The notes beneath the pieces are model-generated. The model saw only the letters and a list, made by a program, of their open reading frames with translations. It did no database searches and had not been told where the DNA came from. A program made the position numbers and the translations under genes. Positions 9,691 through 51,651 of a stretch of 52,459 nucleotides of DNA are shown here, piece by piece. Every line of letters starts with the position of its first letter. Positions within the stretch are counted from its first letter, which is position 1. This stretch comes from a virus: UHGV virus genome UHGV-0060500; one strand, 5' to 3'.

Positions 9691-10338
9691 ATGAAAACAA
9701 AATGGTATGACTTAGCAAAGCAGCTCATGCGGGCGCAGGGCATGAGCCAGGATTCACTCGCGGATCGTATGGGGATAACTAAAGGCGGCCTGTCACACTG
9801 GCTGAACGGTCGCCGAGAGCCAAATCTTGAAGATATTGCGCGGATTATGCGCGAGCTTGGTCGTCGGCAGTTTACTGTTACACATGATGGCATGGTCATT
9901 GATGATTCTGTTTCTAATACACTTCAGGCCGTGCCGCCGCGTGATTTAGGTAGTTACCCGGTTATTGACTGGAAGGACACAGTAAACAATATGGATGACG
10001 CAAGGCGTTCAGCATTACGACACGTTACGACTAGCGTTATTTGTTCAGATGACAGTTACTGGCTGGTTGCCAAAGGTGAATCAATGAACGCGCCGCAGGG
10101 GTTGAGCATCCCGGCGGGGACGATGATACTTGTGGACCCGCACGCGCCAGCTATTGACGGCAAACTGGTTATAGCCCAGCTTGAGGAAGGGCAGATACCG
10201 ACGTTTAAACAGTTGATTATTGATGGAGGTCAAAGGCTTTTACGTTCGCTCAATCCGCTGTATCCGCCAATCCCTATGAATCCAGAATCAAAAATTATAG
10301 GCGTGGTGGTTGATGCGAAGATCGTAAACCTGCCATAA
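9691..10338 (+). CDS. cI: CI-like repressor (HTH_XRE plus S24 LexA-like peptidase domain)
   Basis: 215 aa; N-terminal HTH (QDSLADRMGITKGGLSHWLNGRREP); C-terminal GESM...K self-cleavage motif pattern. Confidence 0.85.
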   Translation: MKTKWYDLAKQLMRAQGMSQDSLADRMGITKGGLSHWLNGRREPNLEDIARIMRELGRRQFTVTHDGMVIDDSVSNTLQAVPPRDLGSYPVIDWKDTVNNMDDARRSALRHVTTSVICSDDSYWLVAKGESMNAPQGLSIPAGTMILVDPHAPAIDGKLVIAQLEEGQIPTFKQLIIDGGQRLLRSLNPLYPPIPMNPESKIIGVVVDAKIVNLP

Positions 10339-25804: not shown

Positions 25805-26296
25805 ATGATTAGCCAATCGCTGAAAAACAAGATTGTTGCGGCGGCGGCTGGTGGGGCGATCGCTATTGCGGCGGTGATGATTAAGCCATTAGAGGGCGTG
25901 GAACACGATCCTTATCGTGATGTTGTTGGCGTATGGACTGTTTGCTACGGTCACACCGGAAAAGACATCATGCTTGGGAAGACTTACACGCAATCAGAAT
26001 GCGATGCTTTGTTGAACAAAGATCTACATAAGACCGCAAAAGCGATTGACCCATATATCAAAGTCGAAATATCAGATTTTACCCGCGCTGCACTTTATTC
26101 GTTCGCCTATAACGTAGGCGCAACCAACTTCAAAACATCAACCTTATTAAAGCTACTCAATGACGGCAAGAAATCAGAGGCGTGCGCACAGCTTAAGCGC
26201 TGGGTATACGCTGGCGGTAAGAAGTGGCAAGGCCTGGTTAACCGCCGCGAGGTTGAATATGCCGTTTGCGAATGGGGTGAGAAATGGACAAGGTGA
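25805..26296 (+). CDS. SAR endolysin (lysozyme, T4-lysozyme-like catalytic triad region)
   Basis: 163 aa; N-terminal signal-anchor-release helix [17 protein letters not shown], then E...D...T catalytic spacing ([16 protein letters not shown]). Confidence 0.8.
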
Positions 26297-26754
26297 AGAC
26301 GTTAATCATCGCCGTTGTTGTTTGCATTATTGCCGGACTAACCGCCGTAACGTGTTATTACCAGGGTGAGGCGGCAAGGTTACAGGAAGAAGTCACGGTG
26401 ACGAAAGGCGCACTGAAGACAGCAAGTAACACTATTCAGCAGATGAAGGAGCGAAACGCCGAACTGTCAAAACTTGATAAGAGGTATCACGATGAGATTA
26501 AAGCTATCAGATCTGACATTGCCGATCTGCGCACTGGCATTGATAACGGCACTATCAGGCTGCGCGTCAACGCAATACCGGTGCGAGTGTCTGACCCCAC
26601 CGGAACCGCCAGCGCCATTGATGGAGCCGCCTGTAGACTCACTCCCGACGCTGAATCGGCTTATCTATCCCTCAGAGAACAACTAAAAACGAAAGACGCT
26701 CAGATTACTGGTCTTCAGGACTACATCAAAACTCAGTGCTTACGCAAAGAATAA
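26284..26754 (+). CDS. Rz: Rz-like i-spanin
   Basis: 156 aa; N-terminal TM helix, coiled-coil periplasmic domain; embedded Rz1-like ORF in another frame. Confidence 0.75.
26474..26686 (+). CDS. Rz1: Rz1-like o-spanin lipoprotein (embedded in Rz); start probably the Met at 26492
   Basis: Lipobox LSGC followed by a Pro-rich sequence, entirely inside the Rz gene in the +1 frame. Confidence 0.7.
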   Translation: MIRGITMRLKLSDLTLPICALALITALSGCASTQYRCECLTPPEPPAPLMEPPVDSLPTLNRLIYPSENN

Positions 26755-37241: not shown

Positions 37242-37718
37242 ATGTCTCAGACTTGCGAAAAAGGCACGTTTACAGGCCGTGACGTTGCTGTATTCTTCGC
37301 TATCGCTTGTCCAAATGCGAAGCCGGAAGCTGAAGCGTACAAAGCGTTAGGCATGATGCGTGGTAAAACACTTTCCGTTGAATGGGAAACCGCTGACGCC
37401 ACCGCCGATAAATCAGCCGATTACACGAAAGAATCAATGGTTACTTACAAATCCGTTTCTTTCTCCGGCGACGGTGTGTCCCGCACTGAAGAAATCCATA
37501 ATCAGAAAGCGCTGAAACGCCACGTAATTACGCCAGGTGAAACCACCGGATCACAACCTTATGTATGGCTGAAGATCGTTTCTCCTGTAGACGTAACTGA
37601 AGGCCCATTCCTTTGCACTTCCTTTAAAGAAGAAGATCCGCATGATGATGTTTCCACCTGGTCTATTGAGTGCGAAAGCGCTGGCAAGGTAACGGTAGGC
37701 GACGTTCCGCCAGCATAA
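37242..37718 (+). CDS. Major tail protein
   Basis: 158 aa; followed by a terminator and a chaperone-like gene, upstream of the tape measure. Confidence 0.6.
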   Translation: MSQTCEKGTFTGRDVAVFFAIACPNAKPEAEAYKALGMMRGKTLSVEWETADATADKSADYTKESMVTYKSVSFSGDGVSRTEEIHNQKALKRHVITPGETTGSQPYVWLKIVSPVDVTEGPFLCTSFKEEDPHDDVSTWSIECESAGKVTVGDVPPA

Positions 37719-37761: not shown

Positions 37762-37773
37762 AAGGTGAATACT

Positions 37774-38472
37774 ATGATCCATGTTCGTACAGGACAATTT
37801 GCTGCCGTGGTGAACGGTAAGCGCTATGAGTTTAATCCTTGCTTTGCTGCGATGGCTAAAATCGGCAACGATAGTGAGCTTGTCGAATATTTCGCACTTA
37901 TCCACGGCGGCAAATATCCATCACGATTGCCAGCAGATCCAGACCTACGCAATCGCATTCTGGCGCGGTGTTATGGTGAAATAGTTAAGACATCAATGCA
38001 CATCCTGAAATGTTGCTCAGACGACGAAATAGGCCCGTTATTGGGCGAATGCTGGTTTACTCCTTCGGGTAAGTTAAAGTTAAAGCCCGGATTAATGCCG
38101 ATCGAGGATATCATCACGCTTGCGCAGCACTGCATGTACCACGGTCTTATTGGTGATGGCCCGGAAGAAGAGTCCGGGGAAATCCCGGAAGGGGAATATA
38201 AGCCGACTTTTAACGTCCTTGAATTCGTCTATTCTGCCGTTGCTCACCTGGGCTTGTCAGAATCGGAAGCATGGAATATGACAATGACCGGATATAGGGC
38301 CGCTGTACGCGCTAAAACGCCGCCAGACGAAAGAAACGAGAAAAGCAAGCCAAACATTCACATAAATAAACGTGCTTATGACGAGCAAATGGAGGCCGCT
38401 AAAAAGGCACTAGAAAGAATGAAAAATCGTGAGCAAGAAAAGCCCGGTAGATCCGGGCGTTTTGCTAATTGA
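37774..38472 (+). CDS. Putative tail assembly chaperone
   Basis: About 233 aa between the major tail and tape measure genes; SD AAGGTGA. Confidence 0.45.
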   Translation: MIHVRTGQFAAVVNGKRYEFNPCFAAMAKIGNDSELVEYFALIHGGKYPSRLPADPDLRNRILARCYGEIVKTSMHILKCCSDDEIGPLLGECWFTPSGKLKLKPGLMPIEDIITLAQHCMYHGLIGDGPEEESGEIPEGEYKPTFNVLEFVYSAVAHLGLSESEAWNMTMTGYRAAVRAKTPPDERNEKSKPNIHINKRAYDEQMEAAKKALERMKNREQEKPGRSGRFAN

Positions 38473-38839
38473 AATCTTTAATTGCTGTACCTGGTGAACT
38501 GTGTGTGATTGTATTGTATACAGACTTTGCCTTACTGCGATCTTTCCATTCTTTTAGGATGCAGTTATCAAACTTTGCGATAACCCTTGAAGGGGATAAT
38601 TCTTCAACATCCATGTAAGTAAATCCTATCGTGCTGGTTACTGAATACCATACGTGATAACTATAATTACCGTCATGCTCGATTCTTTGTGGTTCCCCCA
38701 TTATTTTATTCACTTGCTCACAAGTCATTCCAACTTGCAAATTTTTATCAGCTAACTTAACGAAATCAGTTGATCTTGCGCACCCTGTAAGAGCTAAAGC
38801 CATAACACCAATGAGAACCGCTTTGATTATTTTTTTCAT
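38465..38839 (-). CDS. Lipoprotein (124 aa), antisense moron in the tail module
   Basis: Signal peptide with lipobox LTGC (MKKIIKAVLIGVMALALTGC). Confidence 0.6.
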   Translation of the reverse strand: MKKIIKAVLIGVMALALTGCARSTDFVKLADKNLQVGMTCEQVNKIMGEPQRIEHDGNYSYHVWYSVTSTIGFTYMDVEELSPSRVIAKFDNCILKEWKDRSKAKSVYNTITHSSPGTAIKDFN

Positions 38840-38849
38840 GATTTACCCC

Positions 38850-39509
38850 TTAATTCCAGTTGCAAGCGTTTTTCACTTTGTCGATGTGGTTATAAAGACC
38901 ATCAATGTTAAACACTGCTTTCTCAATGTCGCCAGCTTCCGGCACTACTTCAATGATGAATTGTTTTTCGTTAACCAGTTTTTTAATCATTGGGATGGCT
39001 TTTTTGCCGTCCCATAATCCAAGAGCTTTATAATTAGTTGACCGCCACCACTCAGTAGCTACAGCTTTGTGAACGCCGATCCGGTAGTTAATATAAGTAG
39101 TGTCCCCGGCGTCAGTTACATGGTGTGACCATGCTACGAACATTTTTGTTTTATTACCCTGGCAAGCGATTGTTAATACCGGTTTATTCTTATCCTGTGC
39201 CTTCAGTGTCGGGAAAGCATCAAGACTTCCGCTGAATTGTTCTGCTTTCACAAAAAGGAATACGTTTTTTGCGTCCTGCATATCATCTTTTCTTTCAACT
39301 ACAAGCCACTGTTTACCAGCATTTTCTTTTTCTAACTGTGCATCGTATGCGGCTTGTTTTGCTTGTTGTTCTGCAAGCCATTTAGCATTTTTCTCTGCTA
39401 ATGCTTGTTGCTCTTGATTGGTCACTATAGGCGCTTTTTCATTATCCTCATTGCAACCAACCAGACCCAATACCGCCGCAATCATTGCCACTTTTGCTAA
39501 CCGTTTCAT
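38850..39509 (-). CDS. Lipoprotein (219 aa), antisense moron in the tail module
   Basis: Signal peptide with lipobox LVGC (MKRLAKVAMIAAVLGLVGC); Gln/Ala-rich linker. Confidence 0.6.
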   Translation of the reverse strand: MKRLAKVAMIAAVLGLVGCNEDNEKAPIVTNQEQQALAEKNAKWLAEQQAKQAAYDAQLEKENAGKQWLVVERKDDMQDAKNVFLFVKAEQFSGSLDAFPTLKAQDKNKPVLTIACQGNKTKMFVAWSHHVTDAGDTTYINYRIGVHKAVATEWWRSTNYKALGLWDGKKAIPMIKKLVNEKQFIIEVVPEAGDIEKAVFNIDGLYNHIDKVKNACNWN

Positions 39510-39636
39510 AACCCACCACGCTAACTTGATTTACTGACCATTCCCTTTAGCTTCCTTATACAAAATGGAGTCGTTGAAGTAAAGCCATTTTGTATAAAAT
39601 AGATACACAGATCACATTTTTGCATGAGGTTAAATC

Positions 39637-41979
39637 ATGGCTACCAGTGTAGGTACAATTTATTACGAAGTTGATGCGAAAACTGGTCAACTTCTCGTTG
39701 CACAACGACAGGCAGACCAGGCCTTTGATCGTATAGAGCGCGGCGCAAAACAGGCTGACCGCCAGGTAAACACCCTGAAAACATCCATCAAGGCACTGAC
39801 CAGGGTTATCCATCTGCTAATTGCTGCGGAGGCTGTGCGCCAATTTATGGATATGGCGGAGCAAGCAAAAATGCTTCGCGTAAAAATCAAAATGCTTACG
39901 GGCGATGCGGAGTCCGCCGGACGGGTTTTCGACGGCCTGAAAGCAATATCCAGGGAGACGGGGCAGAGCCTGAAAGATACTGGCGAATTATGGCAAGGCC
40001 TGGCTATCTCACTAAAAAACACCTCCGCTACGGAAGGGCAATTGCTTAACCTGGTTGGCACTATTCAGAAAATGGGTGCATTAGGCGGCGCGTCAGCGGA
40101 ACAGATGTCTAACTCAATGCGTCAATTCCGTCAGTCTATCGACGGCGGTGTTCTTCGTGCCGAAGAATTTAACAGCCTGCTTGAAAATACGCCGACCATC
40201 GTACAAACAATGGCCCGCCATATGGGATTATCAATGGGCCAGTTCCGCGCCGAAATGCTGGACGGCAAGATCACGGCTGAAAGGATGGTTAACGCAATAC
40301 AGGCGGCTACGCAGGAAACAAACGATAAGTTTGCTCAGTTGCCGCGCACATCCGGCATGGCTATCAATGAGCTTAAAGTAGAAATTATGGGCCTTGTTGA
40401 GCAGTTGGATGATCTTTTTGGCGTGTCAGATGGCGTTGTTTCAGCTATCGACTTGATCACGAAAGGCGTTAAAGGGCTTGGCGATGGCGCTAAATTCGCT
40501 AAAACCTGCTTCGACACACTCAAAACGGCTGGTAGCGAATTTATCGACATGTTTGATGATGTGGCTGTTAAGGCTGGAGAGGTGGCAGAGAAGATCATCG
40601 CAATGGTGACGCCAATCAAGGCGCTAATGGATGGCTATAAATGGATGAAGGAGGTAGTAGGAGAGCAAACCGACGAATATAACAGCAACTACGAGAAGAA
40701 ATACGGGAAGACCGTTGGCAAGGTCATGCAACTACAGGATGATCTGACCGCAGCAATCCAGGCTACAGAAGAAGCAAGGAAAAATGAACAGAATGCTGCC
40801 AATGACGGAGCGATTACCGGATTCGACAAGCCAGTAGACAAGCCGAAAAAACAGAAAAAAGAGAAGAAATCGGAAGCTGATCGGCTTGGTGACAAAGGTA
40901 TAAGCGTTTCTGATCAGTATAACAAAGACGCCGCCGCCATGCGCAAAGCGTTGGAGAACGGCAAGGCCATTGATGCTGCATTTGCCCAGGGTAAAATCAC
41001 GCTCCTTGAGTACCGCGCCGCGCAAAAAGGGATCGGCAAGGAACTGAAAGAAGAATTAGCACAAATTCCGGTAGATGAATTGCGTGATAAATGGTCACAA
41101 ATAGTAAGCCCGATGGATCAGCTAAAAGGCGAAGTTGACCCCATCCAGCAGGCGCAAAATGAATGGGCCATCCGTAAGCAAATGCTTATAGACCTGGGCG
41201 CTACTGAAGCGCAACAGAAACAGGAATTGTTAGCCTATGAGCAACAGATCCGCGATCTGAAATGGGAACAATGGCAGGCGCAAAGCGACACAAACGGCCT
41301 TATCGGTGATTGTGTTAATGGCCTTAAAGGCGGAATGAGTAATGCGCTTGTTGGCCTGTTAAACGGCACTCAATCATTGAGTGATGTTTTTGCTAACTTA
41401 GGAAGCAATATACTCGGCAATATCGGTAACAGACTCTCAGACATAGCTGCAAACTGGATAGCAGATCAGATCATGATGGAGACACAAAGCAAGGCCACGC
41501 AAACAAGTACAACAGCAAGCGCGGTAGCAGCTCAGGGAAGCATTGCTGCGGCGGCGGCCCCAGCAGCGGCGGCAACTGCGGCGTCAACTGGCGGTAGCTG
41601 GGCGGCGGCTGGTTCGGCGGCGCTCACTGCGATCATGTCGCTGGCTACGTCAATTTTCGGCGGCGGTCGCTTTAATGGTGGTAGCGTCATTGGTGGTAAT
41701 ATGTACCGCGTAGGGGAACACAACAGGCCGGAGCTATTCCAGACATCTAACGGCAATCAATATATGATCCCTGGCGAGAACGGCAGAGTTATTCCTGGCC
41801 GTGATATTGGCGGCGGTGGCGGTATTAGTATGCCTGTCAGTATCAGCATTCAGACCACGAACGGATTCAGCGACGAAGACAGCCGCAGACTTGAATTAAC
41901 AATGGAACGTGTAGCCATGAAAATGATAACAAGGGAATCTCAAAGACCAGGCGGAATGTTGCAACCTCGCCGCAAATAA
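39637..41979 (+). CDS. Tail tape measure protein
   Basis: 780 aa, helical N-terminal two thirds, Gly/Ala-rich C-terminal region; position before gpM/L/K/I/J homologues. Confidence 0.8.
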   Translation: MATSVGTIYYEVDAKTGQLLVAQRQADQAFDRIERGAKQADRQVNTLKTSIKALTRVIHLLIAAEAVRQFMDMAEQAKMLRVKIKMLTGDAESAGRVFDGLKAISRETGQSLKDTGELWQGLAISLKNTSATEGQLLNLVGTIQKMGALGGASAEQMSNSMRQFRQSIDGGVLRAEEFNSLLENTPTIVQTMARHMGLSMGQFRAEMLDGKITAERMVNAIQAATQETNDKFAQLPRTSGMAINELKVEIMGLVEQLDDLFGVSDGVVSAIDLITKGVKGLGDGAKFAKTCFDTLKTAGSEFIDMFDDVAVKAGEVAEKIIAMVTPIKALMDGYKWMKEVVGEQTDEYNSNYEKKYGKTVGKVMQLQDDLTAAIQATEEARKNEQNAANDGAITGFDKPVDKPKKQKKEKKSEADRLGDKGISVSDQYNKDAAAMRKALENGKAIDAAFAQGKITLLEYRAAQKGIGKELKEELAQIPVDELRDKWSQIVSPMDQLKGEVDPIQQAQNEWAIRKQMLIDLGATEAQQKQELLAYEQQIRDLKWEQWQAQSDTNGLIGDCVNGLKGGMSNALVGLLNGTQSLSDVFANLGSNILGNIGNRLSDIAANWIADQIMMETQSKATQTSTTASAVAAQGSIAAAAAPAAAATAASTGGSWAAAGSAALTAIMSLATSIFGGGRFNGGSVIGGNMYRVGEHNRPELFQTSNGNQYMIPGENGRVIPGRDIGGGGGISMPVSISIQTTNGFSDEDSRRLELTMERVAMKMITRESQRPGGMLQPRRK

Positions 41980-42065: not shown

Positions 42066-42320
42066 TCACTTATGAGTGCCTTTCACGCCACATAACTTGT
42101 TATAGGCATGGTGCTCAACAATTAACCAAACCTTCAAATCTTCGCTAAACAGCCTCCAATCAAGATTGATATCCATTTTGTATCCGTAACCGTCGCGTAA
42201 CTTTTTGGGGTAAACTTCTTTTCTCAGAAAGGCTTTAAGTAATTCCTTACCTTTCTTGATGATCCGGTCCTGTGCGTTTTTCTGTGCTTTCAGATTTCTG
42301 TCAATCGCTACCAGTTTCAT
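42066..42320 (-). CDS. Small basic protein (84 aa), possible RelE/YafQ-like toxin; antisense moron
   Basis: C-terminal ...DW...GTHK loosely resembles the YafQ C-terminal pattern (EPDW...RTGTHAALF) as recalled; low certainty. Confidence 0.4.
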   Translation of the reverse strand: MKLVAIDRNLKAQKNAQDRIIKKGKELLKAFLRKEVYPKKLRDGYGYKMDINLDWRLFSEDLKVWLIVEHHAYNKLCGVKGTHK

Positions 42321-42337
42321 AACTCACCCCATCATCC

Positions 42338-42493
42338 TTAGTTAAGTGCCTTCAGGAAGAAGTCCCGGTATTCATCTTCTTTCGCATTCATCATGAATTG
42401 ACCGTATTTGAATGCGTCGTCGAAACCCTTAACGATTGCTATTTCCACTTGTTCGAATGCGTTATTTAGCATTACTACTACATAGCGTTTCAT
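42338..42493 (-). CDS. Small protein (51 aa) upstream of and coupled to the 84 aa gene (possible antitoxin)
   Basis: ORF ending 17 bp before the next start; MKRYVVVMLNNAFEQVEIAIVKGFDDAFKYG... Confidence 0.35.
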   Translation of the reverse strand: MKRYVVVMLNNAFEQVEIAIVKGFDDAFKYGQFMMNAKEDEYRDFFLKALN

Positions 42494-43367: not shown

Positions 43368-43616
43368 CTATAAGTTATCACGCAGATAATTAACGCCCTT
43401 ATCAGTGACGAATGAATGGTTAACCTGGTTTTCATCCGTCATGATGATGAATAACTTTTCATGTAGGTATTTCGCTTTCGGGTACAGCGTTAAACAGACC
43501 TGGTACAGTATCCCGCGCTCAATCAGCAAATCAATAAATTCGTGTTCATGATAACCGATGAGGCGGGCGGCCTGTTTCAACGTGTACACATAATCACCGT
43601 GATTGCGCCGCCCCAT
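43368..43616 (-). CDS. Small HTH-like protein (82 aa), antisense moron
   Basis: YTLKQAARLIGYHEHEFIDLL resembles a helix-turn-helix. Confidence 0.4.
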   Translation of the reverse strand: MGRRNHGDYVYTLKQAARLIGYHEHEFIDLLIERGILYQVCLTLYPKAKYLHEKLFIIMTDENQVNHSFVTDKGVNYLRDNL

Positions 43617-43625
43617 GTTGCCGCC

Positions 43626-43973
43626 TTATTTATCGAATGCTGAAAGGTTATCGATACAGAAATCTTTCGCCGCTTTTTCGTATTCGCGTTTTGCTTCTGG
43701 ATCGTCAGCCGGGAAACCTTTTGCGTGTATTTCACCAGGGCAAGACTGGTCCATAGAATCTGCATAATAAGCAGTGAAGCTACCATTAATATCTTTCGGG
43801 TTCATATCTTCCACCTCATCAACTATCTGTACCGGATTAGCAGCATATTTCACTGGATGGCCTAAACTACATTCAAGAATCCTGCCTTCTTCCAGGGCTA
43901 CTTCTTCGCTATCAAATAATCCGAAACACTCCTTGCTACCACTTAACCACACATCAAGACTGTATTTTTTCAT
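43626..43973 (-). CDS. Hypothetical protein (about 115 aa) with N-terminal region paralogous to the upstream small gene
   Basis: MKKYSLDVWLSGSKECFGLFDSEEVALEEGRILECSLGHPVKY; SD GAGG before the ATG at 43973. Confidence 0.45.
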   Translation of the reverse strand: MKKYSLDVWLSGSKECFGLFDSEEVALEEGRILECSLGHPVKYAANPVQIVDEVEDMNPKDINGSFTAYYADSMDQSCPGEIHAKGFPADDPEAKREYEKAAKDFCIDNLSAFDK

Positions 43974-44142
43974 TTTTGTTAGCCTCATATTTGACAGGTT
44001 CGATCTGGTATCCCAAAAGGCGGTCATCCTCAGCAAGTAAAAGCGCGTCAACCAATGCTTCACCCTCGTCGTCATACAGGGCGATAACCTTTTCCCTACC
44101 GTCTGTCATGAATACCGTCAACTTCCATAGCTTTTCAGTCAT
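43954..44142 (-). CDS. Hypothetical small protein (about 62 aa), paralogue of the N-terminus of the next gene
   Basis: MTEKLWKLTVFMTDGREKVIALYDDEGEALVDALLLAEDDRLLGYQIEPVKY; SD GGAGGTG. Confidence 0.45.
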   Translation of the reverse strand: MTEKLWKLTVFMTDGREKVIALYDDEGEALVDALLLAEDDRLLGYQIEPVKYEANKNEKIQS

Positions 44143-44271
44143 AACGCACCTCCGCGCCATTTTGTTAACTATGCTTCCGTTTGAGTAAAATATACATATT
44201 GTAAAAACCGCGATCAATCCATTTTGGTATGATTTAGCGTGACGCAGATCACAGAATGACAAGGTGAGAAA

Positions 44272-46196: not shown

Positions 46197-49100
46197 ATGA
46201 GTAGCGGCGGCGGCAAAGCCAAAACACCAACATTATTGAACGATAACCTGTATCACAAACAGTTTTATCGTGTTTTAGATATTCTCAGCGAAGGGCCGAT
46301 ATACGGTCCGGTAAACCAGAAAGCGCCATTGAATGACGTGATGCTTAATGACACTCCTGTTACTGACGCAAACGGGAATACATCAATTCCGGGGATTAGT
46401 ATAGCCTGGCGCAACGGCACGGCTGACCAATCGCCGATTAATGGTTTTAACGCCATTGAGTCAACCGTTATTGTCAACGCAAAGGTAACTCACGACACAC
46501 CAATAATCAGGACTGTTTCAGATCCAAACGTTACCCGCGTCAGGTTGAATCTTGGTGTTGATGCTCTCGTTCAGTCAGATGAAAAGGGCAATCAATATAA
46601 TACATCCGTCATGTTGATGGTTGATGTTAAACCGTCATCATCTTCTACGTGGTCGCTGATTAAAGACATACACATTGGCCCTGGTAAACAAAGCGGTGAA
46701 TACCTGGAAGCTCACATCATTAAAGCGCCGGATGAAAAACCGTTTGATATTCGCGTTCGTCGCATAACACCAGACAGCAACGGCGATCTATTGCGGAATG
46801 ATACGCGGTGGAGTAGTTACAGCGAAATAATAGATGATAATCTGTCTTATCCTCATACCGCTGTAGCTGGCGCCGTAATTGACCATGATCAGTATACTGA
46901 TACGCCTACCCGCACCTATCACCTTCGCGGCCTGATTGTTGATGTGCCTGACAACTACAACCCTGAAACGCGCACATATTCAGGTTTATGGCTTGGTGGA
47001 TTTAAAAAGGCGTATACCAATAACCCTGCATGGCTTTTCCGGTATCTGGTTAAAAACGAGCGCTTTGGACTTGCTCGACATGCTGGTTACATTGATGTTG
47101 ATGATGGCGCTTTGTACGTGCTTTCTCAATACTGCGATCAGTTGGTTGATGATGGCTATGGTGGCCTTGAACCTCGCATGACGCTTAACGCTTACATTAC
47201 GGAGCAAATGAGCGCCCGCGACCTACTGGATAACATCGCAGGTATGTTCCGTGGTATCGCGTTATGGGACGGACAACGTCTTACCGTGATGATTGATGCG
47301 CCACAAGATCCAATCGCCACCATCACAAATGCAAACGTCGTTGATGGCGCGTTTACTCGTTCAAGTATCGCACGCGCAGAATGCTACAACGCCGTGATCG
47401 TATCCTGGACTGACCCTGAAAACGGCTGGGAGCAATCAAAAGAATATGTCGCAGATGATAAACTAATCGCCCGTGATGGTTATAACGAAACCACGTTGGA
47501 GGCGTTCGGTTGCACTTCACGCGGGCAAGCGCACCGCGCTGGTAAATGGCTGATCGAAACAGCGAAACGCGAGCCGTCAAAATTCACATTTAAAATGGCC
47601 CGTGACGCCATTCACTTTACGCCGGGGGATATAATCGAGATCCTCGATAATAATCGCGCAGGCGCTCGTTTAGGCGGTCGCATCGTGGCGAACAATGGCA
47701 GAGCGATCACGGTCGACAAGGTTGATTCTGAATATATCGCGGCTGGCGACACCATCAGCTTACTTGATAGCGATGGTAAATTTAAAAAACACCAGATCAT
47801 CGGAGTTAACGGGAACATTATCACCCTTGCAGCCGCCCCGGCGTGGATTCGTAACGGCACTGTTTTTGCTGTATCAACCAACGCAGCAAAACCCGTTTTA
47901 TGTCGAATCACCAGTGTAGCAGAAACAGAAAATAACAGCGTATACACCATCGAGGCCGCACAGCATGATCCACATAAGCAGGCCGTAGTCGATAATGGCG
48001 CAATCTTCGAGATCAATAACGACACGCTTAATCACTTCCGCGTGCCGAACATTGAAAATCTGAAGGTGTTAAACGTTGGATCTGAAACGGTTCAATGTCG
48101 CGCAACATGGGAAACACAGACGACAACGCGTCGCCTGACCTTTGAGATTCGCGTGTATAACGCCGAAGGCGCTGTAGTTAAAAGCTACGAAACCACGAAT
48201 TACAGTTATGATTTTTATGGCATTGATGCTGGCAACTACTCATTAGGCATTCGTGGCAGAAATGACACGGGCATGAAGGGTGCGGAAAGCATTGTCGATC
48301 TGGTTATTGGCGCACCAGCGGCCCCAGTTGGCGTTAATTGGGTTCCCGGTGTATTCCAGGCTACAGTTTACCCGATCAGCAGAACAACGCTCACCACTGA
48401 TACCAGTTACGAGTTTTATTACTCAGGTGAAACGCAGATCACTGATCCGGCATCAATAACCACTAAAGCACAATATACCGGGCGTGGTCATCAGTGGACG
48501 TTTGGCGGCATGAATACAGGTCACACATATTACGTTTATGTGCGCGCGCGTAACGCTTTTGGTGTGTCTGACTTTGTGGAAGCGTCAGGTAAGCCAACAG
48601 AAAACTTTGATGAAATTACCGATTACGTCACCAAAGACGTAATGAATTCCAAACAATTTAAAGAAATGGTTGGTGACATTAAAGATCTAGGCGACCGCAC
48701 TGATCTTATCGAAAGCGCTACGAATGACCTTAAAACTGCTACTGACAACCTCAAAACTGCAACTGATAATCTGACCAACATAACTGACGATTTAAGGACT
48801 GAAACTGACAACCTAACCATAGAAACAGGATCAATAAAAGCTGATACTGATACGCTCAAAAAAGAAACGGAAGATCTTTATAAAAAAGTTAAGGAAAACG
48901 CCGATGATATTGGACAGCATGAGTCGAGAATCGACTCGCTGGAGGTGTCTAGCGAAAAAGTTGGCAGCGAACTGGCGCAAGCAAAAGCAAGTCTGCAAAA
49001 CGCCTCACTTGCTCTTATTAATAACTCGCTTGCACAGACTAACACTCGCGTAACTCTTACCGCTCAGTACAAGAAAGGCAGGACAGAGACGAAAGCGGAA

Positions 49101-51167
49101 ATTGACCGCATTGACAACGTTATCGCTGAAGAGAAAAAAGCGACAGCGGAATCACTGGAAACCATCACGGCAGAAATGAATGTGATGGACACAAACCTTA
49201 AAGGTCAGATCTCTAATGTGCAACGCGCAGTAGCTGACGAGGCCAGCGCCCGCGCTGAAGCTATTAACGGTGTAAATGCCTCAATAAGCAATCTTGACAA
49301 GAAAACTGACGCCAGCGTAAACCGTCTTGATCAGGCAATTGCAGACGAAACAAGTGCGCGTACTCAGGCTATCAGCGACGTGAACGCAAGTATCTCAACA
49401 CTTGACAAGAAAACTGACGCCAGCGTTAAGCGCCTCGATAATGCAATATCAGATGAAACGCAGGCAAGAAGCGACGCAATAACAGTGGTTAAAGCTGATT
49501 TAACAACGCTTGAAAATAACACAAATGCCAGTGTTAGCCGTCTTGATCAAGCTATCGCTGATGAATCAAGCGCACGTGCTCAGGCGATATCAGGTATCAG
49601 CGCGACGCTTGGCGGCGTTAAAAGTGAGGTTGATAAAAACAGCGACGAGATAGATCAGGCGAAAGCAAGTCTGCAAAACGCATCTCTGGCGCTTATTAAT
49701 AACTCAATGGCGCAAAGCAAGATGAGCACTGTTATTGAGGCGAAATACAGGAAAGGACAAACAAAAACAAAAGCGGAAATAGCAAGGGTAGACACAGCAA
49801 TCGCAGATGAGGCGAGCGCACGCGCAGAAGCTATTAGCAACGTTAACGCCAGCGTCAGTAGTCTTGAAAGCAAAACCGACGCGAGCGTTTCCCGTCTTGA
49901 TAAAGCAATCGCAGATGAGGCGAGCGCACGCGCAGAAGCTATTAGCGGGGTTAATGCGTCAATTTCCACGCTCGATAGCAAGGTGACAAGCAACGTAACC
50001 AGGATGGATAAAGCGATCGCAGATGAGAAGAATGCACGCACTGACGCAATCAGCAGCCTTAACTCATCGCTTACCAGTACGATTAATTCGAAAGTATCCG
50101 AAGTGTCAACTGCACTTTCTACGCATGAAACATCAAGCGCGGAAAAATTTGGCCAGATCTCGGCATCTTTCGACGATGTAAACTCAAGCATCACGGAATG
50201 GTCACAGGCTATGGCAACGGCAGACGAGGCATTGTCAACCAGAATCGACCAGTTGAAAGTAACTATTAACGGAAACACAACGGCGATAGAAACGACATCA
50301 AAAGCACTGACTGACTTCAAAGGTAACGTTGATGCGTCATATTCAATTAAGATTGCCACTGATAAAAACGGTATGAAATACGCTACAGGAATGTCGCTCG
50401 GCCTTACTGGTAGCGGGACTAACGTTCAATCGCAGTGTATTTTCCTCGTTGACCGTTTCGTGCTTATGACTGCGGCAGGTGGCTCCTATCAGACCCCGTT
50501 CTATGTTACTAACGGTGCTTGCTACATCCGTGATGCGTGGATCAGAGACGCATCAATCACTACCGCGAAGATTGCGCAGCAAATTCAGTCAACCAACTAT
50601 AAAGCTGGTTCGGCTGGCTGGATGCTAAATAAAAACGGCAATGCGGAGTTCAACAACGTCACTGTACGCGGTACGGTGTACGCAACATCTGGTAAATTCA
50701 CTGGTGAGATTCAGGCCACAAGCGGGAAGTTTAAAGGTACAGTAGAGGCAAAGTCATTTGTCGGTGACGTTGCTAACATGGGGGTTGGTCCAGATCGAGT
50801 GCTTGGGCATAACGGAAGTTATAGCGCAACCATCACATATAAAGACAGCACGGATAATGCATTGACGAAATCAGTTATGCTTATGGCGACTATTTCATTA
50901 ATGTCTGGTGAATATAGATCCACTTATAACGTAACGTTTAGTTGCGGAGATAAAAACAAAACAATTTCATATTACGTGCCTTATGGTGGATGCACATTAA
51001 CAGTGCAATGCGCTTTTTCTGGTTTAAAAGCATCAGATATTATCGGGAAAATATATTGTCCTCAAACATCATCATCTGAAGGATACGCATATTGTACCGC
51101 GTTGTATTCTCCAACAATGATAGTAGCAAGAGGCACCGGATCATTTAGAACATCAACGACAGCATAA
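46197..51167 (+). CDS. Host specificity protein J (central tail fibre / tip attachment protein)
   Basis: 1656 aa; N-terminal two thirds typical of lambda J-like proteins, followed by a long coiled-coil repeat region and a C-terminal receptor-binding region. Confidence 0.85.
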   Translation: MSSGGGKAKTPTLLNDNLYHKQFYRVLDILSEGPIYGPVNQKAPLNDVMLNDTPVTDANGNTSIPGISIAWRNGTADQSPINGFNAIESTVIVNAKVTHDTPIIRTVSDPNVTRVRLNLGVDALVQSDEKGNQYNTSVMLMVDVKPSSSSTWSLIKDIHIGPGKQSGEYLEAHIIKAPDEKPFDIRVRRITPDSNGDLLRNDTRWSSYSEIIDDNLSYPHTAVAGAVIDHDQYTDTPTRTYHLRGLIVDVPDNYNPETRTYSGLWLGGFKKAYTNNPAWLFRYLVKNERFGLARHAGYIDVDDGALYVLSQYCDQLVDDGYGGLEPRMTLNAYITEQMSARDLLDNIAGMFRGIALWDGQRLTVMIDAPQDPIATITNANVVDGAFTRSSIARAECYNAVIVSWTDPENGWEQSKEYVADDKLIARDGYNETTLEAFGCTSRGQAHRAGKWLIETAKREPSKFTFKMARDAIHFTPGDIIEILDNNRAGARLGGRIVANNGRAITVDKVDSEYIAAGDTISLLDSDGKFKKHQIIGVNGNIITLAAAPAWIRNGTVFAVSTNAAKPVLCRITSVAETENNSVYTIEAAQHDPHKQAVVDNGAIFEINNDTLNHFRVPNIENLKVLNVGSETVQCRATWETQTTTRRLTFEIRVYNAEGAVVKSYETTNYSYDFYGIDAGNYSLGIRGRNDTGMKGAESIVDLVIGAPAAPVGVNWVPGVFQATVYPISRTTLTTDTSYEFYYSGETQITDPASITTKAQYTGRGHQWTFGGMNTGHTYYVYVRARNAFGVSDFVEASGKPTENFDEITDYVTKDVMNSKQFKEMVGDIKDLGDRTDLIESATNDLKTATDNLKTATDNLTNITDDLRTETDNLTIETGSIKADTDTLKKETEDLYKKVKENADDIGQHESRIDSLEVSSEKVGSELAQAKASLQNASLALINNSLAQTNTRVTLTAQYKKGRTETKAEIDRIDNVIAEEKKATAESLETITAEMNVMDTNLKGQISNVQRAVADEASARAEAINGVNASISNLDKKTDASVNRLDQAIADETSARTQAISDVNASISTLDKKTDASVKRLDNAISDETQARSDAITVVKADLTTLENNTNASVSRLDQAIADESSARAQAISGISATLGGVKSEVDKNSDEIDQAKASLQNASLALINNSMAQSKMSTVIEAKYRKGQTKTKAEIARVDTAIADEASARAEAISNVNASVSSLESKTDASVSRLDKAIADEASARAEAISGVNASISTLDSKVTSNVTRMDKAIADEKNARTDAISSLNSSLTSTINSKVSEVSTALSTHETSSAEKFGQISASFDDVNSSITEWSQAMATADEALSTRIDQLKVTINGNTTAIETTSKALTDFKGNVDASYSIKIATDKNGMKYATGMSLGLTGSGTNVQSQCIFLVDRFVLMTAAGGSYQTPFYVTNGACYIRDAWIRDASITTAKIAQQIQSTNYKAGSAGWMLNKNGNAEFNNVTVRGTVYATSGKFTGEIQATSGKFKGTVEAKSFVGDVANMGVGPDRVLGHNGSYSATITYKDSTDNALTKSVMLMATISLMSGEYRSTYNVTFSCGDKNKTISYYVPYGGCTLTVQCAFSGLKASDIIGKIYCPQTSSSEGYAYCTALYSPTMIVARGTGSFRTSTTA
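48960..50060 (+). repeat. Nested in-frame repeats within J: duplicated block of about 690 bp (starting near 48963 and 49661) containing repeats of a 34 aa unit
   Basis: Repeated peptide DASV.RLD.AIADE.SARA.AIS.VNASIS.LD.KT and duplicated QAKASLQNASLALINNS...KAEI segments visible in the translation. Confidence 0.7.
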
Positions 51168-51207: not shown

Positions 51208-51453
51208 TTATTTTTTACACCCATCATTTACACCAGAAAAATGGATAGGTAAATTACATTCACTGTCAATAATTTTACCTTGTAGTTGTTTTTCTTTCCA
51301 TGAGTCAGTATTGAAATAACTCGAACGTTGGTTATCAAGGCCAGTATCACCATATTGAGCAGTGCCAGCATCACTCTTATCTGTCGAATTTACAGAAGCA
51401 AAAGCACCAAAAGACAGAGCTGATAAGATGCAAGCAACAATTAGTTTTTTCAT
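51208..51453 (-). CDS. Small secreted protein (about 81 aa, signal peptide), moron downstream of J
   Basis: MKKLIVACILSALSFGAFA signal peptide; SD AAGGTGA; longer ORF-track start to 51510 unlikely. Confidence 0.5.
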   Translation of the reverse strand: MKKLIVACILSALSFGAFASVNSTDKSDAGTAQYGDTGLDNQRSSYFNTDSWKEKQLQGKIIDSECNLPIHFSGVNDGCKK

Positions 51454-51651
51454 TGTATTCACCTTACTGTTTGTTTTACTGTCATTTGTTGTTCGTGATG
51501 ATCCACCCATCCGATGAGCAAATCACCGCAGAAGCTATCATTTCGTATGTTGATATAGATCAAAAAAATACATTATGTATAAGCCCAAAGTGTAACACAG
51601 ATCACAAAATGGTAGAATTGTTTAGTTAATTAACAAAACGGAGTTATTGCG

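Follow-up and report, generated by a model that had tools for sequence, protein, structure and literature searches.

The stretch of DNA analysed here (the window: the whole virus genome UHGV-0060500, 52,459 nucleotides) carries two lipoprotein genes, encoding proteins of 219 and 124 amino acids (aa), that lie antisense to the tail operon in a slot between the gene for a DUF6246 protein and the gene for the tape measure protein (TMP). We found that the larger gene appears to encode a VasI/TagO domain that has been re-tethered by a lipid anchor, and that the family to which this domain belongs appears to be a recurrent cargo of temperate phages. The label 'type VI secretion system (T6SS)-associated' is probably misleading for the 219-aa gene. 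As to the function of the pair, we propose, tentatively and with somewhat less than even confidence, that both lipoproteins are made by the lysogen and alter its envelope, so that superinfecting phages would be excluded at the step at which they cross the periplasm.

An earlier, sequence-only reading of this DNA had placed two lipoprotein genes with the lipoboxes LTGC and LVGC at 38465-39509, transcribed in opposition to the tail operon. The coordinates, both lipoboxes and the orientation are confirmed, as both genes lie on the minus strand and the tail genes on the plus strand (Table 1). Each protein begins with a basic n-region, followed by a hydrophobic h-region and a lipobox that fits the pattern [LVI][ASTVI][GAS]C, and the lipobox Cys together with the Gly/Leu is invariant across all homologues aligned, down to 54-64% identity. 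Shine-Dalgarno-like purine-rich motifs lie 4-7 nt 5' of each ATG; since the GGGG of the 124-aa gene falls inside the 10-nt gap between the two genes, co-transcription with the upstream 219-aa gene is suggested. The ratio of nonsynonymous to synonymous substitutions (dN/dS) was 0.20-0.26 for the 219-aa gene, measured against alleles 92-95% identical, and 0.07 for the 124-aa gene, measured against the copy in phage mEp013. Because of the conserved lipobox, the Shine-Dalgarno-like motifs, a terminator described below and the dN/dS of 0.07-0.26, both open reading frames (ORFs) are genuine genes under purifying selection, not chance ORFs. A regular-expression scan of the whole window for lipoprotein signals returned these two genes and an Rz1-type spanin, besides three further short ORFs that are probably spurious. 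The Rz1-type o-spanin ORF (26492-26686, plus strand, lipobox LSGC) is the sole other convincing lipoprotein signal of the window and lies out of frame inside an Rz-like gene (26284-26754).

The residue that follows the lipidated Cys (position +2) sorts lipoproteins between membranes. By this rule the Asn of the 219-aa protein and the Ala of the 124-aa protein both predict sorting to the outer membrane. One allele of the 219-aa protein (P0007) has Asp-Glu at +2/+3, a pair that in E. coli retains lipoproteins in the inner membrane, and other alleles have Asn, Arg, Gly or Glu at +2. Asp at this position in one allele suggests that the membrane of anchorage is perhaps not critical, and the anchoring membrane may vary among the alleles.

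The 219-aa protein matched the Pfam family VasI (PF11319) with 58.1 bits against a gathering threshold of 26.5, residues 55-218 aligning with positions 25-184 of the 184-position profile, and it matched phrog_1848, which bears no functional label. The five residues that are invariant in the family (C116, T121, R143, C216 and W218) are all kept in the window protein, as seen in a 54-sequence alignment that includes it, and C116 and C216 probably form a periplasmic disulfide. On its sequence, we assign the protein to the VasI/TagO family. When 1.84 billion representatives were searched with a profile, 1879 relatives came up, only 5 of them below E 1e-30, which indicates that the coliphage clade to which the window protein belongs is small and divergent.

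The N-terminus sets the 219-aa protein apart from the rest of the family. Canonical members examined have a Sec signal followed by one to three Cys-x8-RLxCYD motifs and no lipobox; many of the 147 listed distant representatives have the motif, as do all five homologues from phages or prophages that were read. Three tandem copies precede the VasI domain in proteins of P2-like coliphages (Escherichia phage 500465-2, locus L025, 3195-4088, and its relatives). The 219-aa protein has no such Sec-plus-Cys-x8-RLxCYD N-terminus, and a lipid anchor and a helix stand in its place: the lipobox is followed by a 10-residue linker, a predicted helix of 33 residues (31-63) and a predicted beta-sandwich at about residues 66-218. 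The AlphaFold model has a mean predicted local distance difference test score (pLDDT) of 69, with values of 75-85 over most of the domain. A fold search of BFVD with this model returned only uncharacterised phage proteins, at template-modelling scores (TM-scores) of about 0.5 or less, and a sequence search of the PDB gave no match for the 219-aa or the 124-aa protein. It appears that the lipid-plus-helix tether on a VasI/TagO domain is a new architecture.

PGAP names the 219-aa protein 'type VI secretion system-associated protein TagO', and the protein missed the cutoff of the corresponding NCBIfam equivalog (TIGR03360), scoring 47.4 against 124.2 bits. A 2026 review that covers T6SS accessory factors gives the role of TagO/VasI as 'Unknown' (PMC13584744), and loss of VCA0118 in V. 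cholerae reduced killing and left Hcp secretion unaffected (PMC3166118). We reject a true T6SS TagO identity for the 219-aa protein on the grounds of its genomic context, the NCBIfam cutoff and the missing N-terminal motif.

The 124-aa protein belongs to phrog_18614, likewise free of a functional label, and its homologues form only ten clusters, all from E. coli, Shigella or metagenomes. Its scores remained under the curated cutoffs for PF04355 (SmpA_OmlA; 18.9 against 23.2 bits) and for OsmE (NF008423; 17.8 against 65), and its match to the DUF7738 hidden Markov model was likewise under the curated cutoff. The structural model (pLDDT 70) has the order alpha-alpha-beta-beta...beta-beta, and a BamE/OsmE/BLIP-like fold is predicted for the protein. 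The sequence-only reading had left the function of both proteins open; with a VasI/TagO domain in one and a putative BamE/OsmE-like fold in the other, a family or fold can now be assigned, and the question is no longer wholly open.

The window as a whole is a complete mEp021-like (mEpimmI-type) E. coli prophage, from the integrase through J. Its nearest phage relatives are mEp013, mEp044, mEp554, mEp010, mEp515, mEp021 and MagusPhagus, which are known as 'mEpimmI' gut coliphages, Nus-dependent and non-lambdoid (PMC11893012). The insertion had been described as lying between the tail chaperone and TMP genes. The position is right; the word 'chaperone' stands for the DUF6246 protein, whose gene lies between the major tail protein gene and the TMP gene and which we presume from that position to be the tail assembly chaperone. 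In this slot the GC content of 38465-39509 is 0.397, compared with 0.474 in the tail genes and 0.500 in the TMP gene. The slot is limited at the left by a terminator-like hairpin and at the right by a backbone segment that contains a 13-bp inverted repeat, and its content varies among mEp013, mEp044, mEp010, mEp021, MagusPhagus, E. coli M1/5 and the IMG/VR locus L021. In mEp013 the slot holds a 124-aa lipoprotein (82% identical) and a 59-aa hydrophobic protein, with no 219-aa gene. MagusPhagus and mEp021 have a protein of 137/138 aa with a Sec signal, mEp010 has a minus-strand ORF of the same size (compared by size), and mEp044 has a 100-aa protein with a hydrophobic N-terminus. E. coli M1/5 has a VasI-like gene together with an unrelated 106-aa protein that has no signal peptide, and locus L021 has a VasI-like gene alone (61% identical). 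The alternative cargo is on the minus strand too, four of the five alternative cargo proteins examined have a Sec signal or a hydrophobic N-terminus (the 106-aa protein of M1/5 being the exception), and an empty slot was seen in none of the relatives compared. Because of the low GC content, the terminator of its own and the different cargo in related phages, the insert appears to be a horizontally acquired, exchangeable 1.1-kb cassette at about 38460-39555. In mEpimmI phages, cargo is exchanged at the chaperone-TMP junction, with a terminator marking one limit and a conserved palindrome the other. The suggestion that the two genes are a lysogenic-conversion moron is borne out by the low GC content, the terminator, the variable slot cargo and the position, which is that of HK97 gene 15.

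The two genes had also been treated as one insertion. They do share a cassette, and the pairing does not hold. Among 18 IMG/VR loci, ten had both genes and six had the VasI-like gene over a shorter M1/5-like slot; of the remaining two, one ended before the chaperone gene and one had the VasI-like gene alone. Together with mEp013 and M1/5, these loci show that the genes assort independently, which makes them independent modules, and we reject an obligate pairing of the two lipoproteins. The DUF6246 and TMP backbone was present in 34 of 5426 complete E. coli genomes, all copies being chromosomal and the stated hosts mostly human; among these 34 genomes, 15 had the 219-aa gene and 14 had both lipoprotein genes.

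VasI-like genes are found in other phages as well. A VasI-like relative is held by 24 annotated phage records, six of which were fetched; these six are Brucella phage BiPBO1, a Labrenzia phage and P2-like coliphages. In BiPBO1 (L026, 2410-3827) the VasI-like gene comes immediately after an S24 CI-type repressor gene of like orientation, the Labrenzia phage has it in the immunity region, and the P2-like coliphages have it at the prophage end, adjoining host genes. An IMG/VR scan with a 9-sequence alignment gave 59 loci, 37 of which were non-redundant and outside the coliphage clade; the counts that follow are raw. At 8 of the 37 loci the VasI-like gene immediately follows a Peptidase_S24 CI-type repressor gene of the same orientation; the six intergenic gaps measured span 8-112 bp. 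At 5 of the 37 the TMP gene starts divergently from the VasI-like gene, 37-328 bp away, which is the topology of the window, and in at least two more lineages (L049, L086) the VasI-like gene is co-directional with, and directly upstream of, a gene for a TMP_3 protein. In all, the VasI-like gene abuts the 5' end of the TMP gene at no fewer than 7 of the 37 loci, and since the TMPs and the VasI proteins at this junction are deeply divergent, the association with the TMP junction occurs in at least four lineages. A Mor activator gene is upstream at three loci, in Mu-like elements. A second sample consisted of eight distant cellular homologues on long contigs, and a T6SS cluster surrounded none of these eight. 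In a prophage of Pontibaca salina (L029, 7364-8627) the homologue runs in the direction of an S24 repressor gene and overlaps its end; the overlap here and the adjacency in BiPBO1 imply co-transcription with the lysogeny repressor. Of the other sampled homologues, one lies between divergent blocks of prophage genes and three lie in integrative elements or defence islands. Taken together, VasI-like genes are a recurrent cargo of temperate phages with two preferred positions, the CI operon and the TMP junction.

The left limit of the cassette is a bidirectional, G+C-rich terminator-like hairpin that lies directly past the stop codon of the 124-aa gene, still within the 3'-terminal part of the DUF6246 gene, and ARNold terminators are annotated at the equivalent site in mEp013, mEp044, mEp010 and mEp021. 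The DUF6246 gene and the 124-aa gene are convergent, and their 3' ends overlap by 8 bp (38465-38472). Since the hairpin is within the DUF6246 coding sequence, late transcription must read through it toward the TMP gene, which would fit the antitermination reported for mEpimmI phages. Upstream of the 219-aa gene a permissive scan found a weak candidate promoter with 9 of 12 matches and without the conserved T at -7, and a stricter scan of the same region called no site. At the right limit, the perfect 13-bp inverted repeat is nearly invariant in eight aligned phages and prophages, whatever their cargo. As an RNA hairpin it has a folding energy of -19.5 kcal/mol (z -2.2); it had no Rfam match, and Rfam over 38300-39750 gave chance-level hits only. 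The repeat might serve as an operator, form the core of divergent promoters or fold into an RNA hairpin in the late transcript.

How could such a cassette exclude phages? The cassette would be transcribed in the lysogen, antisense to the tail operon, and would end at its own hairpin, and its products would be lipid-anchored and face the periplasm. In the 219-aa protein, the lipid anchor, the linker and a helix of about 50 angstroms would hold the VasI/TagO beta-sandwich off the membrane. The step on which this protein would most likely act comes after adsorption, where it would interfere in the periplasm with the TMP-dependent passage of the tail tip and DNA; HK97 gp15, encoded at the same position, and Ltp of phage TP-J34, which targets the TMP, serve as models for exclusion at the TMP stage. 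Receptor blocking, which the sequence-only reading had raised, finds no specific pointer in our data, and the associations with the CI operon and the TMP junction fit a periplasmic block of DNA entry at least as well.

Several observations weigh against the proposed exclusion. PADLOC matched neither protein and none of the small ORFs nearby, and PHROG gives neither protein a functional label. The exclusion proteins that have been demonstrated in the mEpimmI group are short Cor-like lipoproteins encoded next to J, in another slot (PMC11893012). A convincing sigma-70 promoter for the cassette was found in neither promoter scan, and a pLDDT of about 70 gives both structural models moderate confidence. 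The viral locus counts are uncorrected for relatedness, and the chaperone-TMP junction may be no more than a hot spot where insertions are tolerated. Three of the eight sampled cellular homologues lie among housekeeping genes; since the family occurs in housekeeping chromosomal and T6SS contexts, its domain may have a cellular target, not a phage one.

A broader form of the proposal would make the VasI/TagO fold primarily a periplasmic superinfection-exclusion module of temperate phages, widespread and so far overlooked, with its gene either in the CI operon or joined to the TMP gene at the 5' end of the latter; the module would act on TMP passage, with the T6SS copies as a co-opted branch and the lipoprotein form of E. 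coli as newly tethered; we regard this as rather unlikely. It is unlikely, too, that one or both lipoproteins neutralise toxins that act in the periplasm (T6SS amidases or lipases, colicins, lysozymes), as an orphan immunity protein or inhibitor that benefits the lysogen. A shade more doubtful is a Bor/Lom/IalB-like host-interaction factor that would serve colonisation, serum resistance, or resistance to grazing or invasion, without phage exclusion: the same family is found in phages of marine non-pathogenic alphaproteobacteria (Labrenzia, Pontibaca), the 219-aa protein is predicted to face the periplasm and not the surface, and no more than 17 of the 5426 complete E. coli genomes have the cassette. 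A late lytic helper like T5 Llp, which would stop progeny from re-adsorbing to debris or being triggered prematurely on it, seems improbable to us. It would be in keeping with the sense-orientation VasI-like genes before TMP in the tail operons of L049 and L086, with the VasI-like gene after Mor in Mu-like elements and with the lack of a strong independent promoter at the window cassette, but the window genes run against the late operon and have a terminator at their border, and at 8 of the 37 viral loci the VasI-like gene follows the lysogeny repressor. The least probable reading is that of a genuine TagO, a T6SS accessory that tunes the T6SS of the host: PF11319 is above threshold, PGAP uses the name and TagO/VasI is listed as a T6SS accessory (PMC13584744), but the equivalog cutoff is missed, the N-terminal Cys-RLxCYD is absent, no T6SS gene was present among the scanned proteins of the 52-kb prophage, none of the eight sampled homologues is in a T6SS cluster, and most relatives of the phage do not have the gene.

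The findings matter beyond this prophage, as RefSeq spreads the T6SS name TagO onto prophage genes. The cloned gene gives experiments a direct way into a family of at least 1879 sequence clusters, to which a function could thereby be assigned and whose misleading annotation could be corrected. If no exclusion is seen, the two genes would be an ordinary pair of lysogenic-conversion genes.

The features of the cassette and of its surroundings are listed in Table 1. The prophage also encodes a DnaB helicase, a terminase and a portal protein. Two further antisense islands were observed in the tail module. The first, at low GC content and directly after the TMP gene (42066-42493, minus strand), encodes an 84-aa protein with a ParE-like toxin domain (PF24732) and an upstream 51-aa protein (phrog_29810), which are possibly a toxin-antitoxin pair; the same ParE-like gene also follows the TMP gene in E. 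coli M1/5. The other lies between minor tail genes (43368-44262, minus strand) and encodes an 82-aa KilAC/ANT-like protein (PF03374, 29 bits) and two more ORFs (149 and 102 aa) for which no family gave a significant match. With these two islands, the tail module holds at least three antisense cargo islands.

Table 1. Coordinates of the lipoprotein cassette, its putative signals and selected genes of the prophage, in positions of the window.
Feature	Coordinates	Strand	Details
124-aa lipoprotein gene	38465-38839	-	N-terminus MKKIIKAVLIGVMALALTG|CARS; lipobox LTG|C; Ala at +2
219-aa lipoprotein gene	38850-39509	-	N-terminus MKRLAKVAMIAAVLGLVG|CNED; lipobox LVG|C; Asn at +2
Shine-Dalgarno-like motif of 124-aa gene	38846-38849	-	GGGG; read from sequence
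Shine-Dalgarno-like motif of 219-aa gene	39512-39519	-	GTGGTGGG; read from sequence
Terminator-like hairpin	38442-38458		GCCCGG-TAGAT-CCGGGC; bidirectional, T-runs on both strands; terminator scan
Weak candidate promoter of antisense cassette	39555-39583	-	TTTACT, 17-nt spacer, TATAAG; 46 nt before ATG
Perfect 13-bp inverted repeat	39556-39597		TTATACAAAATGG / CCATTTTGTATAA, 16-nt loop; backbone element, 40 nt before TMP start
DUF6246 protein gene, left backbone flank	37765-38472	+	235 aa; PF19759, 183.6 bits; phrog_791
TMP gene, right backbone flank	39637-41979	+	780 aa; PF20155 TMP_3, 169 bits; phrog_1538, 534 bits
Major tail protein gene	37242-37718		PF06199
J-like tip protein gene	46197-51167
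S24 CI-type repressor gene	9691-10338
Integrase gene	243-1433

Among the known systems, the Cor, Llp and mEpimmI Lpp proteins resemble the window pair in being lipoproteins of coliphages whose moron genes lie antisense in the tail region. Within the mEpimmI group, Lpp021 and Lpp010 exclude phages that use OmpA or LamB (PMC11893012). The Cor/Llp/Lpp proteins have 60-82 aa, are encoded next to J and are of the phrog_12984 type, whereas the window proteins, of 124 and 219 aa, are in another slot and in phrog_18614 and phrog_1848. The window proteins had no Pfam or PHROG match to the Cor/Llp/Bor families at E<=0.01-0.1, and a BLASTP alignment of the 124-aa protein with Lpp010 covered residues 1-21, which is the signal peptide only; the earlier view that the two are distinct from these families thus stands. 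We also reject an identity with the published mEpimmI exclusion lipoproteins, as Lpp021 and Lpp010 are short and encoded next to J (PMC11893012). Just after J, the window encodes on the minus strand (51208-51510) an exported protein with a Sec-type signal, no lipobox and a weak match to phrog_2243, at the position that is the slot of Lpp010 in mEp010.

The 124-aa protein differs from BamE/OsmE (SmpA_OmlA, PF04355) in an extra C-terminal tail and in its narrow distribution, in a few E. coli and Shigella prophages. With VasI/TagO (PF11319, TIGR03360, VCA0118) the 219-aa protein shares the C-terminal domain of about 155 residues and export; the founding members are in T6SS clusters, whereas the window gene is in a phage tail module. 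Ltp of the Streptococcus phage TP-J34, as cited in PMC3952083, is a prophage lipoprotein that excludes phages via the TMP. It differs from the window proteins in being Gram-positive and surface-exposed, with a fold of helix-turn-helix repeats, a gene in the lysogeny module and no homology to them.

The closest parallel in position is HK97 gene 15, the original 'moron' for which the word was coined, which occupies the same slot between the tail assembly chaperone and TMP genes (PMC3594210). Its product gp15, which the prophage expresses, blocks the entry of DNA, and sensitivity to it maps to the tail tube and TMP (PMC3594210). HK97 gp15, a small protein of the inner membrane, has a YebO-like transmembrane helix and no sequence relation to the window proteins, whose family scans gave no YebO-like match; the window has two lipoproteins with predicted unrelated folds, in an antisense cassette. 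Common to both are envelope-targeted products, as predicted for the window, encoded by extra DNA of foreign composition.

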